IMG/VR virus record: IMGVR_UViG_3300005831_000020
Span: 1-58,202 of that record
Strand: one strand, 5' to 3'
Source of the DNA: a virus
DNA length: 58,202 nucleotides
Part shown: in pieces, positions 10,543 through 18,808 of the stretch
Position numbering within the stretch: the first letter of the stretch is position 1
How the letters are laid out: every line of letters begins with the position of its first letter
The notes under the pieces: generated by a model
What the model saw: only the letters and a program-made list of their open reading frames with translations
Told to the model about the DNA's origin: nothing
Databases searched by the model: none
Position numbers and translations under genes: made by a program

Positions 10543-10758
10543 TTAAAACTAATATGTTTTAACTATTTCATTTATCGGTAAAATCCTATTGGTAATTTCG
10601 TACCTTTATGGGATTAGTCCCTCTATTTAAAATAATTATAACACAGCACTCTCTAATCTTGATTTTCTCGTACTTTTTTTGGTTTAATGTTAAATGATTA
10701 TATGATAGATGAATTAGATTAACATTTAAAAATATGCACTAATATATAGGTTTGGAAT

Positions 10759-11733
10759 ATGATAATAAAGAAAACAGCTCTGGTTCTAACAACTCTACTC
10801 ATAGCTAATACGGCGTTAGCAGATAATTATCCAAAGGAAGAAAAAACTACTAATTTCATCGTTACTCCTTCTATAGCCTACAGATATCATGTGTTTAAAT
10901 GGTCTATTCCTCACCCTGATTTTGATAAAAAAGGTTCTGAATTAACATGGAAAAATTATATTGTTCAACCTTCTATTAAAATTGAAACAGAACCTCAACC
11001 AAATTCATTTACTTTTTTAGGTCAGGGTAAATACGGATATATTTTAAAAGACAAGAGTAAATCGTGGGATAAAGATTGGAAATTTCCTAAAATAAAAGGA
11101 TCAAAGGAGAGAATAACAAAAATTGATTCAAATAAAGTATCGGCTGTTAAGGGGAATATTCTAGATTTATCTGGAGCTATCGGTTATTCGGTAAATTTAT
11201 TCAATAACAATTTGCTCACTTTTTATCTCGGTTATGATTACACTGATTATAAAAACAATCAATATGGTATACGACGACTGGTTAATAATCGAAATGATAT
11301 AATATTGTCATCTGATCAACTTGTTACTAGATATAATTTTAAAACAAAAGCACCATGGGTTGGTTTGTCATTTAATATTCCTCTAAATGATAAGTTCTTA
11401 GTCAAACCGACAATCAAATATTATTCTTTTAAATATATCGGAAAAGGTTATTGGTTATTTAGAGATGATTTTAAAAAGAATCCTAGTTTTAAAGATACTG
11501 CTAGAGGGCAAGGTCTTGGAGCTGAAGCTGATTTAGTATATAAATATTCTGATCATCTAGATTTTAACATTAATCTAGAGACAAAAATATTTAAAATGAA
11601 AAAAGGAAATCAACAGACTTTTTTAGCTGTTGATCGGGTAAATCATAAACCTGAGAGAGTTGATACTGGAAAATTACTGGGTTTAAGTCTAACATCCTAC
11701 TCAATTAGCGGAGGTATTAAATATAAATTCTAA
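10759..11733 (+). CDS. Omptin-like outer-membrane beta-barrel protein (OmpT/Pla family candidate)
   Basis: Sec signal peptide ending ALA-D. SELTWK followed ~40 aa later by WDKDW parallels OmpT LDWK...DQDW. Alternating beta-strand pattern with a C-terminal ...KYKF. Confidence 0.55.
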   Translation: MIIKKTALVLTTLLIANTALADNYPKEEKTTNFIVTPSIAYRYHVFKWSIPHPDFDKKGSELTWKNYIVQPSIKIETEPQPNSFTFLGQGKYGYILKDKSKSWDKDWKFPKIKGSKERITKIDSNKVSAVKGNILDLSGAIGYSVNLFNNNLLTFYLGYDYTDYKNNQYGIRRLVNNRNDIILSSDQLVTRYNFKTKAPWVGLSFNIPLNDKFLVKPTIKYYSFKYIGKGYWLFRDDFKKNPSFKDTARGQGLGAEADLVYKYSDHLDFNINLETKIFKMKKGNQQTFLAVDRVNHKPERVDTGKLLGLSLTSYSISGGIKYKF

Positions 11734-11882
11734 CTTCTTTAAATCTGGTTGTAGTTTTTTAGCAATAATACACAAAATTTATTAGTCAGTTGATAACATG
11801 GTCGTTTTTTTTGTAATTTTTTCTGTTAAGGTTTAAAAAGATGAGAGTTTATAACTTTTAAATTTAAAAAGGAGGATCAAGA

Positions 11883-17705: not shown

Positions 17706-18110
17706 TTATCGCAGTTCATTTTTTGTAAAAGCTACTATTGCTTTTTCCATGATTTTTCTCTTATTTCTATCAGGTAAGTCTTTCCAAAATAGCTTTTGTT
17801 TACGTGTAACTCTAATAATTATCTCAGTGTATTCTGATTCTTTATCTTGAATGAGTTGATCTGTACTAAATCCTTTTTCTGCTATTTGTGTTATTATATA
17901 TCGTAATACATCTGATATCGAGCTGAATTTATAATCAGAGACATTGTGCATAGATAATAAATAGTGATGTAATGTATCGTATAGTAAAGTATTGATACGT
18001 AAAGATATACTATAGCTTTTCTTATCAGAAATATTTTGACTGTTGCTATCTAAATCTATTCTATCTCCATAATGTTTTAGATTTTTATTTTTAGCTGATA
18101 ATATTTCCAT
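17706..18110 (-). CDS. Partition adaptor / centromere-binding protein (ParG-like, RHH-type) candidate
   Basis: Its start abuts the parA stop. Two RHH-like segments: SISLRINTLLYDTLHHY and IIIRVTRKQKLFWKDL..IMEKAIVAF. Confidence 0.45.
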   Translation of the reverse strand: MEILSAKNKNLKHYGDRIDLDSNSQNISDKKSYSISLRINTLLYDTLHHYLLSMHNVSDYKFSSISDVLRYIITQIAEKGFSTDQLIQDKESEYTEIIIRVTRKQKLFWKDLPDRNKRKIMEKAIVAFTKNELR

Positions 18111-18712
18111 TAGTTTTTACCATACAAAAGTTCTTGTATCACTGAAAAATTATTATGAATTTCATCAAATACTTTTTTATCCTTTAATGTTGTAAAATAA
18201 TTTTCAGAAAGTGCATTAAGTAAAGTAGGGTATACTGCTGGTCTATTACTTAATCCCTCTAATAAAACCCCTCTTCGCTGTTCTGTTATAATTTTTGATA
18301 CTTGAGATATACCTTCTTTCTGTTCATTAGTACCTTCTTTTCTGTTAGGAATAAAAACAACTCTTTTTTGTAAAGATTCGTTAACTGATAGAAACCAACC
18401 AATAACAATTTCTAAATCTGCAATATGGGGTTGAAAAGGGATAATGATAATATCTGCGTCTTTGACATATCTTATCAAGCTAGACCCAGCCGTCCCAGCT
18501 GTATCTATCACTAATAAATTTGCTTCTTTTGTGCTACAGAATTCATAATTATTATTTTTGCATTTTTCTAACCACGTATAAATAGTTCTGTTAGGGTCTG
18601 CATCTAAAATATTAACAGTATAATTTTTATTTTTAAACCATTGTACTAATAATCCTGCGATTGTAGATTTGCCTACACCACCTTTATCTCCTGTTACTGC
18701 TATAGTTTTCAT
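18110..18712 (-). CDS. parA: ParA-family partition ATPase
   Basis: Deviant Walker A at the N-terminus: IAVTGDKGGVGKST. 200 aa. Confidence 0.85.
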   Translation of the reverse strand: MKTIAVTGDKGGVGKSTIAGLLVQWFKNKNYTVNILDADPNRTIYTWLEKCKNNNYEFCSTKEANLLVIDTAGTAGSSLIRYVKDADIIIIPFQPHIADLEIVIGWFLSVNESLQKRVVFIPNRKEGTNEQKEGISQVSKIITEQRRGVLLEGLSNRPAVYPTLLNALSENYFTTLKDKKVFDEIHNNFSVIQELLYGKN

Positions 18713-18808
18713 AAATAAATAATGTATTATATAAACATAACATTACTATACATTTAAACGCATTACAAGACAATACTATACAATACTTAATAAAGAATTA
18801 TATACTGG

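Follow-up and report, generated by a model that had tools for sequence, protein, structure and literature searches.

An AT-rich slot for maintenance and host-interaction-type genes between the terminase genes of a probable phage-plasmid from a Megaira-like endosymbiont

In the window, that is, the whole stretch of 58,202 nucleotides analyzed here, the gene for the large terminase subunit (terL) and the only TerS-like gene are 9,440 bp apart, as the initial annotation had stated (∼9.4 kb). From left to right, the DNA between them comprises a porin gene and its coiled-coil partner, a serine resolvase gene with a res-like site, the genes for p206, p430, and a ribbon-helix-helix (RHH) protein, the small genes p112 and p71, a partition cassette, and two genes of the right flank (Table 1).

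Table 1. Features of the region between the terminase genes and of its flanks.
Feature	Position	Strand	Description
terL	8923..10542	-	Opens the late (virion) operon; left flank of the slot; PHROG 38 at 1.7e-75
Conserved non-coding element upstream of terL	10620..10707	-	Extended -10 promoter TGTTATAAT and RBS-like AAGGA
Pom-family outer-membrane beta-barrel	10759..11733	+	PF17251 at 4.8e-19; Sec signal peptide; divergent from terL
CC739	11883..14102	+	739-aa coiled-coil repeat protein; internal repeats
Small serine resolvase	14159..14734	-	Pfam Resolvase PF00239 at 2.2e-41; PHROG 125 at 1e-59
res-like site	14741..14934	.	Inverted repeats and TGTAC half-sites
p206	14947..15567	-	Partner of p430; start overlaps p430 stop by 8 nt
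p430	15560..16852	-	Large unannotated family; invariant His198, Asp220, Cys273
RHH (CopG-type) protein	16865..17032	-	Head of p430/p206 operon; Pfam RHH_1 at 1.2e-4
TTGACA-16-TAGACT promoter-like motif	17067..17094	-	Straddles the junction of backbone (from 17,079) and cargo
p112	17102-17440	-	HTH-like; family backbone inside the block
p71	17433-17648	-	N-terminal transmembrane helix; family backbone inside the block
par cassette	17706..18712	-	ParA and partner p134
p134	17706-18110	-	ParA partner, 134 aa
ParA	18110-18712	-	Pfam CbiA/AAA_31/ParA; deviant Walker A KGGVGKST, residues 10-17
Four GTAWTG hexamers	18746..18791	-	10-bp phasing, upstream of parA
Dcm methylase	18809-19690	-	Right flank, family backbone
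p71b	19764-19979	-	Right flank, family backbone
TerS-like gene	19982..20566	-	PHROG 309 'terminase small subunit' at 1e-11, residues 1-96
ParB-N6 methylase	20559-21788	-	Right flank, family backbone

Nothing TerS-like was found upstream of terL, where the 216 bp that separate it from the next gene contained only ORFs of up to 29 aa, in agreement with the earlier statement that no small terminase gene precedes it. TerL was 82–83% identical (aa) to its counterparts on CP113869.1, AP017967.1, and CP113870.1 and had 63 relatives in IMG/VR; INPHARED contained no phage record with a TerL more than 40% identical, the nearest cultured relative being that of Roseobacter phage CRP-902 (39.5%), in which terS overlaps terL. 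The assignment of TerS is a match of the N-terminal HTH region (PHROG, 1e-11; pairwise to the annotated TerS of CRP-902, 28% identity over 96 aa, E 3e-10); the sole match in the PDB was at the level of the HTH, and one relative's homolog is annotated as a LuxR regulator. That virion-less replicons of the CP113870 type keep this homolog alongside TerL supports a role of the TerS-like protein in packaging. The usual adjacency of terS and terL was observed neither here nor in any relative, where 2.6–13.5 kb plus dcm lie between them; because TerS would act in trans, the separation would cost nothing. The right flank (18809..21788, minus strand) was 74–89% identical (aa) to relatives, with nucleotide homology resuming at ∼18,800.

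The extended -10 promoter upstream of terL (plus-strand form ATTATAACACA at 10636-10646) is part of a non-coding element that was 82–92% identical (nt) in 48 of 69 loci, irrespective of the adjoining cargo, and the sequence flanking it on both sides was fully diverged. This element sets the actual left boundary of the variable DNA. It is read as the family's candidate late promoter/operator, which would drive terL, portal, and the remaining virion genes; it might alternatively be a pac site.

The outer-membrane protein gene next to this element had been labeled omptin-like, which proved wrong. The protein belongs to the Pom family (69.2 bits versus a cut-off of 22.4; residues 40-324 aligned with profile positions 5-285 of 285), all of its more than 200 homologs are PF17251, and at E ≤ 0.01 it matched only Pom and, weakly, OMP_b-brl, but not omptin. 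Most sister elements contain a Porin_4 porin instead (Porin_4 at 1.2e-15); the two families are alternative alleles at the same position, Porin_4 in 20 elements (cluster C0) and Pom in 5 (C15). The coiled-coil repeat protein of 739 aa, correctly predicted as judged from its internal repeats, is the constant partner of Pom: homologs of CC739, some with TPR domains, share contigs with Pom homologs. Compared with L010, CC739 was 87% identical (nt) with 13 gaps, and the flanking genes were 96–99% identical; by this comparison, CC739 evolves fast via repeat indels. The porin would remodel the outer membrane of the symbiont, in the sense of lysogenic conversion or superinfection exclusion, and CC739, a putatively secreted protein, may act on the eukaryotic host. 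Lambdoid phages carry comparable lysogenic-conversion genes for outer-membrane proteins or "morons" (lom, bor, and the Lc porin of PA-2). Shared with these are an AT-rich, presumably autonomously transcribed beta-barrel/porin gene at an operon boundary beside the late genes and the alternative alleles at one position; different are the protein families, the orientation divergent from terL, and the constant association of Pom with a coiled-coil/TPR protein.

The serine resolvase and its res-like site, both noted in the initial annotation, were substantiated. The resolvase begins with the N-terminal Ser motif (MKIGYARVSS) and was 81% (aa) and 77% (nt) identical to that of NZ_CP104167.1, a conventional 173-kb Megaira plasmid. 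The res-like site contains two perfect inverted repeats, TGGTACAA-N19-TTGTACCA (14742-14776) and CAGTACA-N25-TGTACTG (14780-14818); more TGTAC half-sites follow at 14839, 14863, and 14928. Seven GTAC cores within 212 bp, versus 0.45 expected (P = 5e-7), are the maximum across the window, and the proximal half-sites hold their position beside the plasmid homolog while the spacers have diverged. Serine resolvase/res systems for multimer resolution are known from Tn3/gamma-delta, Sin, beta, and RK2 ParA-res. As in these, a resolvase (191 aa) with an N-terminal catalytic domain has an array of inverted-repeat subsites (∼130 bp) directly upstream of its start codon; in contrast to Tn3, the half-sites have TGTAC, not TGTCYNNTA, as their core, and neither a transposase nor terminal inverted repeats are present. 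The resolvase presumably resolves plasmid multimers, a role for which P1 likewise uses a site-specific recombinase (Cre-lox) and which is read from the sequence here.

The adjoining operon had been described as RHH/CE-clan-like/ankyrin-like with a TTGACA promoter of its own, which was confirmed in part. The RHH assignment holds (22.4 bits versus a cut-off of 20.5), and the gene has a counterpart of 55% identity in the slot of CP113869. The TTGACA motif is present (17094-17067, minus strand), but the number of promoter-like sites in the region (33 versus 43.7 expected) is not above chance. The likeness of p430 to the CE clan stands at the level of the motif: H198, D220, and C273 are invariant in 46 sequences of a family comprising 657 representative clusters. 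In the AF2 model (pLDDT 83), the His is predicted on a strand, the Asp where the following strand ends, and the Cys at the N-terminus of a helix, which, together with a Gln (Q269) four residues ahead of the Cys, is shared with CE-clan effectors (RickCE, ChlaDub1, SseL, XopD, and YopJ/HopZ1a; RavZ was compared as well). However, no CE-clan HMM recognizes the p430 domain. Models for C48, C55, C57, and RickCE_cat matched neither p430 nor the 46 relatives, p430 was recognized by no protease HMM, and Foldseek against the PDB yielded nothing at E ≤ 0.001; the top matches, RavZ (E 0.012) and HopZ1a (E 0.096), both with a TM of ∼0.2, were non-significant, with a query that was not the isolated domain. 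Ankyrin repeats were not detected in p206 itself; two of three homologs gave matches below the cut-offs (E 0.02–0.13), and its conserved N-terminal ∼100 aa, followed by an acidic C-terminus, are at most weakly ankyrin-like. The protein is homologous to the ORF that follows the p430 homologs in L073 (E 6e-12), L075 (1e-5), and CP113870. Thus, p430 and p206 are a conserved pair, which was also present on chromosomal contigs of Rickettsiaceae. We consider p430 a putative cysteine protease/deamidase-type effector; it is putatively secreted and, together with p206, would act on the eukaryotic host.

Alternatively, the three genes could be a bacterial addiction or toxin-immunity module serving replicon stability or inter-bacterial conflict, with the enzyme as toxin, p206 as immunity protein, and the RHH protein as autoregulator. 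The layout (a small RHH gene, a large enzyme gene, and then a translationally coupled small partner) would fit, toxin-antitoxin modules are plentiful in sister slots and near homologs, and weak matches to Tox-PLDMTX in 9 of the 46 relatives and to YopT/C58 in 2 point to papain-fold toxins. Conversely, there were no PADLOC or toxin-antitoxin family matches, the RHH gene is not conserved alongside the pair, the family seems restricted to Rickettsiales-like symbionts, and relatives include fusions with a RickCE/Ulp1 deubiquitinase-type domain (P0031, where the RickCE/C48 match is this separate domain and not the p430 domain) or with ankyrin repeats (P0059 and P0359). A module of this kind is a serious possibility, although a eukaryote-directed effector appears to be the better explanation.

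The genes p112 and p71 belong to the family backbone despite their position inside the block (80–83% aa and 84% nt identity to L036 and L040); the clusters of the pair, C3 and C5, are represented in 11 and 9 elements, respectively. The HTH of p112 is assigned solely by a C-terminal match to PHROG 125 (7e-4). Next to them, parA and its partner, as predicted earlier, were identified by Pfam for ParA and, for both, by their paired homologs on NZ_CP104167.1 (ParA 87%, p134 72% aa identity); identity to Rickettsia plasmids was lower (64 and 47%), and the ParA at the same position in sister elements was only 26–31% identical. p134 had no match in Pfam, PHROG, or the PDB. By these identities, the par cassette was swapped in from the plasmid pool of Rickettsiaceae. 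The GTAWTG hexamers upstream (4 observed versus 0.06 expected, P = 6e-7), three of which are conserved in the plasmid homolog, are read as a candidate par operator/centromere. A small ParA (∼200 aa) without N-terminal HTH but with deviant Walker A motif and an adjoining repeat array is shared with type Ib-like partition systems. Together, par and res would keep a low-copy element stably inherited in the plasmid-prophage state.

The interval had been noted as more AT-rich than the virion genes, and the profile confirms this: GC is 0.27–0.33 between 10.5 and 18.8 kb and 0.39–0.47 in both flanks, and gene GC3 is 0.238 in the block versus 0.350 in the virion genes (Mann–Whitney P = 4e-4) and 0.293 elsewhere in the genome (P = 0.035). 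Equally AT-rich DNA occurs in the window at 28.5-34 kb and 44.1-46.3 kb. The block also lies, as proposed, at a late-early junction, where a long leftward early/replication/modification unit meets the late operon starting at terL; the slot would thus be bounded by the end of the operon encoding ParB-methylase, TerS, and Dcm and by the conserved late promoter of terL. Every relative with enough sequence has the same frame (ParB-methylase, TerS-like, Dcm, ParA, variable DNA, terL, portal), and the gap between dcm and terL, 2.6–13.5 kb long, is never closed in the ∼17 scorable elements; the split of terS and terL therefore predates this genome, and the placement of the slot would be ancestral to the whole family. 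Relatives of the same gene order and uniform composition had been named in the initial annotation as an outcome that would contradict its view; this was borne out by half, the frame being the same in the relatives but composition not uniform, with the slot AT-rich throughout (GC 0.27–0.33). At ∼0.30, slot GC resembles that of Megaira plasmid DNA (0.30–0.33) rather than that of the virion genes (0.40). The contents vary widely: 31 slots gave 95 protein clusters, 60 of them singletons, and included Porin_4, HU, MazEF, LRR, ankyrin, RNA ligase, Schlafen-ATPase, IS21, giant ORFs, GTPase/TPR proteins, and a dioxygenase/ATP-grasp cluster.

Within the block, segments of different nearest relatives adjoin each other. 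Backbone extends up to 10,707 and is followed by the Pom/CC739 cassette (10,708-14,102), resolvase and site I (14,174-14,808, 77% nt identity to NZ_CP104167.1), an internal backbone block (17,079-17,685), the par cassette (17,719-18,786, 81% nt identity to the same plasmid), and backbone again from 18,800. A transposon or integrative island was considered and rejected: neither inverted nor direct repeats were found to bound the block, it contains no transposase, its sole recombinase is the small resolvase, and its segments differ in their nearest relatives. These data also bear on the interpretation given in the initial annotation, namely, that a captured plasmid or mobile module splits the packaging module; it was evaluated here as a single, rather recent event in which part of a plasmid, or a transposon, landed between terS and terL of an otherwise canonical phage. 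What had been observed correctly is the plasmid origin of the maintenance genes (72–87% aa identity of ParA, p134, and resolvase to the 173-kb Megaira plasmid) and the host-interaction-type cargo; the sharp step in composition at both edges and the overlap of terS with terL in CRP-902 would likewise agree with a single capture. However, the gap with ParA beside Dcm is already present in all scorable family members, at least five cassettes of different nearest relatives and a backbone segment make up the block, the slot is AT-rich in every relative, bounding repeats and transposase are lacking, and, in PLSDB, no single plasmid or transposon matched the block continuously over its full length (10.7-18.8 kb). 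A single capture is thus very improbable. By sequence comparison, the AT-rich block is a family-wide slot, a recombination hot-spot for maintenance genes and swappable host-interaction cargo, and not a one-off insertion.

The element as a whole is a closed circle of ∼58.08 kb because it has a 120-bp terminal overlap and an ORF reads across the junction. In amino-acid sequence, its backbone shared 70–97% identity with "plasmids" of Candidatus Megaera polyxenophila and with over 60 contigs of IMG/VR, the closest relatives being the closed circular Megaira replicons CP113869.1 and AP017967.1; from these relatives, the host is presumably a Megaira-like intracellular symbiont. The virion genes recognized encode TerL, portal, structural, tail, and fibre proteins, along with a GroES-like protein; none was identified by name as the major capsid protein. 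The same replicon encodes ParA and its partner with phased repeats, resolvase and res, and a DnaB helicase. The ORFs scanned, a part of those in the window, included no integrase gene. One relative, L077, has a tyrosine integrase gene adjoining its virion module.

Such a replicon could also be an ordinary plasmid with a domesticated or defective phage cluster (tailocin-like or GTA-like), in which case the "island" would be plasmid backbone and nothing would be functionally split. Relatives were indeed deposited and typed as plasmids (in PLSDB as non-mobilizable), a sister lineage (CP113870 and ∼9 IMG/VR loci) keeps TerL without the virion module, and neither lysis genes nor an integrase were identified among the ORFs scanned. 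However, terL, portal, head, tail, and fibre genes are intact and 70–97% conserved in more than 60 contigs from many samples, the contigs cluster at 44–60 kb, which suggests a packaged unit, and the TerS homolog and the dedicated conserved late promoter have been kept, which renders this explanation quite unlikely. The window is probably a phage-plasmid, complete and circular, from a Megaira-like endosymbiont belonging to the Rickettsiaceae, with an accessory/maintenance slot between terS and terL; virion genes, partition/replication functions, and the circular state would place it in this class, with virion production putative. Similar to known phage-plasmids such as P1, N15, and SSU5-like elements (Pfeifer et al, 2021, NAR 49:2655, as cited in PMC9560607), a tailed-phage virion module resides on a circular, partition-equipped, low-copy replicon, and variable accessory/plasmid genes gather in hot-spots of a conserved phage core. 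Different are the unrelated lineage (TerL 39.5% identical to the nearest cultured one), the obligate intracellular Rickettsiaceae host, replication by DnaB and a DnaA-like initiator, and the maintenance-plus-cargo slot between terS and terL; the family is known from sequence alone.

The mosaic consists of the par cassette, p71 with p112, the RHH/p430/p206 operon, the resolvase with res, and the Pom porin with its coiled-coil partner. Its cassettes would be exchanged by recombination, both with sister phage-plasmids and with co-resident plasmids. Homology arms would be provided by the late-promoter element, the p71/p112 block, and dcm, and the element's own RecT/YqaJ system, as well as the Rpn/PD-(D/E)XK nucleases and IS elements of sister slots, may aid the exchange. 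Phage WO of Wolbachia reportedly contains a eukaryotic association module (EAM). It is an integrated prophage, and its EAM genes are much larger and eukaryote-derived. What the two have in common is a phage of a Rickettsiales endosymbiont with a discrete, variable host-interaction module adjoining packaging/head genes, and ankyrin, LRR, TPR, and protease-type domains are encoded in the slots; the slot differs by also containing par, res, and porins, and no gene homology with WO was found. MAnkyphage of Megaira polyxenophila (George et al, 2023, Curr Biol 33:1982, as cited in PMC10925606 and PMC10847448), a phage of the same host genus, is reported to encode toxin-antitoxin systems and eukaryote-like proteins.

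That the gap between terS and terL is a dedicated, family-wide locus for exchanging porins and effectors and, at the same time, p430/p206 a host-delivered His-Asp-Cys enzyme family is a combination that we propose only tentatively, with the odds somewhat against it. If true, the slot would be a plasmid-borne functional analogue of WO's EAM, anchored at a conserved late promoter, phage-plasmids would carry porins and effectors aimed at eukaryotes from one Rickettsiales endosymbiont of protists to another, and p430/p206 would be a previously unrecognized family of at least 657 sequence clusters with a dedicated partner. Leads for further work are the p430 family and its partner, the fast-evolving porin/coiled-coil pair, the compact res, the par operator, and the conserved late promoter at the boundary. 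Several database entries for "non-mobilizable plasmids" look like phage-plasmids. Routes of gene exchange are few for obligate intracellular symbionts. The family described here is widespread (more than 60 metagenomic contigs and the Megaira "plasmids"), can persist as a plasmid, and presumably transfers as a virion; through its single permissive slot, where effector-like genes, porins, and partition cassettes are exchanged, it could plausibly carry host-interaction traits between endosymbionts of protists and algae.

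The terminal 120 bp of the window are identical (an assembler overlap), and a discoidin-domain virion ORF, 81% identical end to end to the gene of a relative, spans the end junction. The window is therefore a complete closed circle of about 58,082 bp. In megablast and tblastn comparisons, its backbone showed 70-97% amino acid identity to CP113869.1 (64 kb) and AP017967.1 (109 kb), both closed circular "plasmids" of Candidatus Megaera (Megaira) polyxenophila. Scanning IMG/VR for TerL recovered 63 related contigs, several of them 44-60 kb in length, and two further Rickettsiales/alphaproteobacterial MAG contigs were also related; from these relatives, we infer that the host is Megaira or a close member of the Rickettsiaceae. 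Structural, tail, and tail-fibre proteins are recognisable in the virion module, and the element encodes a DnaB helicase, two DNA methylases, one ParA, and homologs of CP113869 and CP113870 genes whose annotation is YqaJ-like or RecT recombination protein. This predicted gene content is that of a phage-plasmid. Rfam and tRNA scans of the window returned no matches. No gene of the element is more conserved than the patatin-like one (96-97% amino acid identity to both Megaira plasmids). At the end of a 112-kb JGI contig (L077), the frame of the window recurs, with virion genes, TerL, the porin Pom, and a TPR/coiled-coil protein followed, further on, by ParA and Dcm; a tyrosine integrase adjoins its virion module, and it may be an integrated or cointegrated form.

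Coordinates of features in the window
Feature	Position	Remark
Identical ends	1-120 and 58083-58202	
GroES (Cpn10)-like gene	5838-6251	in head module
terL	8923-10542	minus strand
Slot between terL and dcm	10,543-18,808	
Backbone	10,543-10,707	includes conserved non-coding element
Pom-family porin and CC739	10,708-14,102	
Serine resolvase and its site	14,159-14,946	
RHH/p430/p206 operon	14,947-17,078	
Backbone p112 and p71	17,079-17,685	80-83% amino acid identity to L036 and L040
par cassette	17,719-18,786	81% DNA identity to NZ_CP104167.1
Backbone (dcm)	from 18,800	
Dcm methylase gene	18809-19690	
TerS-like gene	19982-20566	
HNH-AP2 domain protein	23046-23858	in early region
Second AT-rich accessory region	28485-33941	GC3 0.20-0.31
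Sodium:solute symporter-like gene	29269-30696	in second AT-rich region
MFS transporter homolog	31976-33298	46-51% shared with Megaira plasmids
SpoT-like (p)ppGpp synthetase homolog	33228-33941	46-51% shared with Megaira plasmids
Three conserved large genes	39298-44106	precede 735-aa ORF
735-aa ORF	44108-46315	lowest GC3 of the genome, 0.158
Patatin-like phospholipase gene (annotation of homolog)	52542-53624	embedded in tail/fibre module

TerL was assigned to PHROG 38 (1.7e-75), with the portal gene immediately downstream, and no ORF longer than 29 aa occurs in the 216 bp that separate terL from its neighboring gene. The sole TerS-like gene matched PHROG 309 ("terminase small subunit"; 1e-11, residues 1-96), and its product is 28% identical over 96 aa (E 3e-10) to the annotated TerS of Roseobacter phage CRP-902, the cultured phage whose TerL is also nearest (39.5%). 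In CRP-902, terS overlaps terL; in the window, 9.44 kb lie between the two, which bears out the initial annotation in that terL lacks an adjoining terS. All relatives with enough upstream DNA share the order ParB-like protein, p105, ParB-N6 methylase, TerS-like protein, p71b, Dcm, ParA, (small partner, p71, p112), variable DNA, TerL, and portal. The distance that separates the dcm end from the terL start was never zero in any scored element: 2.6 kb (L065), 4.1 kb (L017, L057), 4.5 kb (L071), 5.2 kb (L037), 5.3 kb (L060), 5.5 kb (L036, L068), 7.0 kb (L059), 7.1 kb (L064), 7.5 kb (L058), 8.3 kb (window), 11.5 kb (AP017967), and 13.5 kb (CP113869). That the same frame, gap included, is kept by the relatives speaks against a capture in this particular genome, as had been proposed, and argues that TerS and TerL were already apart, and par already beside dcm, in the ancestor of the family. 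As TerS works in trans, its distance from terL would be neutral, and a boundary between two transcription units would be where insertions harm least. The Dcm methylase of the window is ∼42 aa shorter than those of CP113869 and AP017967; the difference is a mid-alignment gap at the expected target-recognition region, and the short form also occurs in L017, L057, and L065, a distribution suggesting that methylation specificity varies across the family.

The claim that the interval is more AT-rich than the virion genes held: its GC content is 0.27-0.33, compared with 0.39-0.47 on both flanks, and mean gene GC3 is 0.238, compared with 0.350 for virion genes (p = 4e-4). The interval is not unique in this: 28.5-34 kb and 44.1-46.3 kb hold genes just as AT-rich. 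Slot GC is 0.27-0.33 in nearly all elements, near the 0.30-0.33 of Megaira plasmid DNA; virion genes have about 0.40. The 735-aa ORF had no Pfam match and no homolog in CP113869 or AP017967.

Breakpoints at the nucleotide level divide the slot into pieces of different history (Table). At its terL edge, a non-coding element of 60-88 bp shows 82-92% identity across 48 of 69 loci, irrespective of the neighboring genes. Read in the sense of terL (ACGAGAAAATCAAGATTAAAAAGTrGTGTGTTATAATTATTTTAAGTAAAGGAAA), it comprises a perfect extended -10 (TGnTATAAT; TGTTATAAT) followed by an RBS-like AAGGA. The terL ATG lies within ∼20 nt downstream of it in most relatives, and the leader is ∼87 nt in the window. 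We read the element as the putative late promoter/operator of the family; a pac function is possible. A sigma-70 scan found promoter-like sites not above chance, and it missed the conserved extended -10 because this has no -35. A repeat search found no inverted or direct repeats bounding the block as mobile-element edges, and megablast of the region against phages gave no match.

The OMP gene next to terL belongs to the Pom family (PF17251, 4.8e-19); on this Pfam assignment, the "omptin-like" label given to it initially was rejected as wrong. Pom and the coiled-coil protein CC739 are conserved neighbors on many contigs, some of the CC739 relatives containing TPR domains, and five family members have this pair at the place where a Porin_4 cassette is usual. 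Compared with its counterpart in a sister genome that is otherwise 96-99% identical, CC739 shows just 87% identity, with 13 indels confined to the central coiled-coil repeats. Against PLSDB plasmids, Pom had no match and CC739 one partial Megaira match; a PDB sequence search with CC739 yielded nothing useful.

The resolvase is 81% (amino acid) and 77% (nucleotide) identical to that of the conventional 173-kb Megaira plasmid NZ_CP104167.1. Its site contains seven GTAC cores in 212 bp, compared with 0.45 expected (p = 5e-7), arranged as TGGTACAA-N19-TTGTACCA, CAGTACA-N25-TGTACTG, and further half-sites; beside the plasmid homolog, the proximal half-sites hold their position and the spacers diverge. 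ParA and its small partner, p134, have 87% and 72% amino acid identity to their counterparts on the same plasmid (64% and 47% to those of Rickettsia plasmids), whereas ParA is only 26-31% identical to the ParA in the same position of sister elements. The 96 bp upstream of the cassette contain four GTAWTG hexamers in phase at 10 bp (p = 6e-7), which the plasmid homolog preserves. These comparisons indicate a clean swap of one partition cassette for another between conserved flanks, plausibly as an escape from incompatibility with co-resident relatives. PDB sequence searches with p134 and ParA yielded nothing useful.

The operon between resolvase and backbone encodes p430, which had no Pfam, PHROG, PADLOC, or PDB sequence match. 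Its family comprises 68 close homologs and, in an exhaustive profile search, 657 representative clusters at E ≤ 1e-3, with no bridge to any named family; PDB sequence searches with p206 and the p430 profile were equally uninformative. His198, Asp220, and Cys273 are invariant in a 46-member alignment (HTVVLYK ... VIDPSNF ... Q-x-R-D-C-IDIAVKLAF). A single-sequence AF2 model was unusable (pLDDT 34); redone with the 46-sequence alignment (pLDDT 83, pTM 0.83), it places His on a strand, Asp at the end of the next strand, and Cys at the N-terminus of a helix, a modeled layout that is the one of CE-clan enzymes and RavZ. The best Foldseek matches were RavZ (E 0.012) and HopZ1a (E 0.096), not significant at TM about 0.2; nothing in PDB or BFVD reached E ≤ 0.001, none of the CE-clan HMMs recognizes the domain, and p430 was not filed as a member of that clan. 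Some relatives weakly match papain-fold toxin models over the His-Asp hairpin, P0031 is a p430 core fused to a separate, genuine RickCE/Ulp1 domain, and two other relatives are fused to ankyrin repeats. The p430 homolog P0060, annotated as a Hydra vulgaris protein, is on a 57.7-Mb scaffold; either contamination by a symbiont or gene transfer to the animal could account for it.

The partner protein, p206, whose ankyrin resemblance is sub-threshold, is homologous to the ORF after p430 homologs in two other contexts, one of them a Rickettsiaceae chromosome-like contig, and on CP113870, which argues for a conserved, mobile two-gene cassette. The RHH protein of the window is not homologous to the 55-aa ORF that precedes the p430 homolog in L075. 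We read p430 as a putative cysteine-protease/deamidase-type effector that has a dedicated partner and probably a target in the eukaryotic host; that p430 and p206 instead form a toxin-immunity pair is a live rival. PADLOC matched none of the ten island proteins, and a defence-island reading was dropped for this reason.

Slot content is highly fluid: across 31 slots or partial slots, 95 protein clusters were found, 60 of them singletons. A Porin_4 porin adjoins terL in 20 elements; other contents are HU, MazEF, an LRR protein, an ankyrin protein, an RNA ligase, a Schlafen/AlbA ATPase, IS21-like genes, giant ORFs of >2,000 aa, GTPase/TPR giants, and a dioxygenase/glutathione-synthase-like cluster. 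In L013, L016, and L011, single giant ORFs of >2,000 aa (GC 0.34-0.38), which extend past the edge of the 10-kb flank, fill the slot beside the terL-proximal OMP. The region is a family-wide mosaic slot. Of the initial proposal, plasmid-derived maintenance genes and host-interaction cargo at an early/late junction stand; the single capture does not.

A second replicon lineage, comprising CP113870.1 (L002/L006) and IMG/VR loci L041, L044-L049, L056, and L067, retains TerL (80-82% identical) along with the conserved late-promoter element and a TerS-like homolog (39%), without a portal or virion module; after TerL come homologs of w23883 and the ParB-like protein. CP113870 further encodes PolB and a primase-helicase and has two giant "SecA-like" ORFs (4.8 and 15.7 kb). 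These replicons may hitch-hike on the phage-plasmid or be its satellites.

The element has a phage-plasmid architecture with an accessory-gene hot-spot. In the plasmid-prophage state, par and res would secure inheritance, the porin and possibly CC739 would remodel the envelope, and p430/p206 would act on the host cell. Cassettes may be exchanged by recombination at three conserved anchors (the late-promoter element, the p71/p112 block, and dcm), with help from the YqaJ/RecT genes that the element itself carries and from the Rpn/PD-(D/E)XK nucleases and IS elements of sister slots. Conceptually, the element comes closest to P1/N15-type phage-plasmids, lambdoid morons and the Lc porin, res systems of plasmids, and the eukaryotic association module that Wolbachia phage WO carries. 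The literature searched contained no description of this phage-plasmid family; PMC10925606 and PMC10847448 cite a phage of Megaira, MAnkyphage (George et al, 2023). The chief leads are the p430/p206 family and the prospect that such phage-plasmids move effectors and porins among protist endosymbionts.
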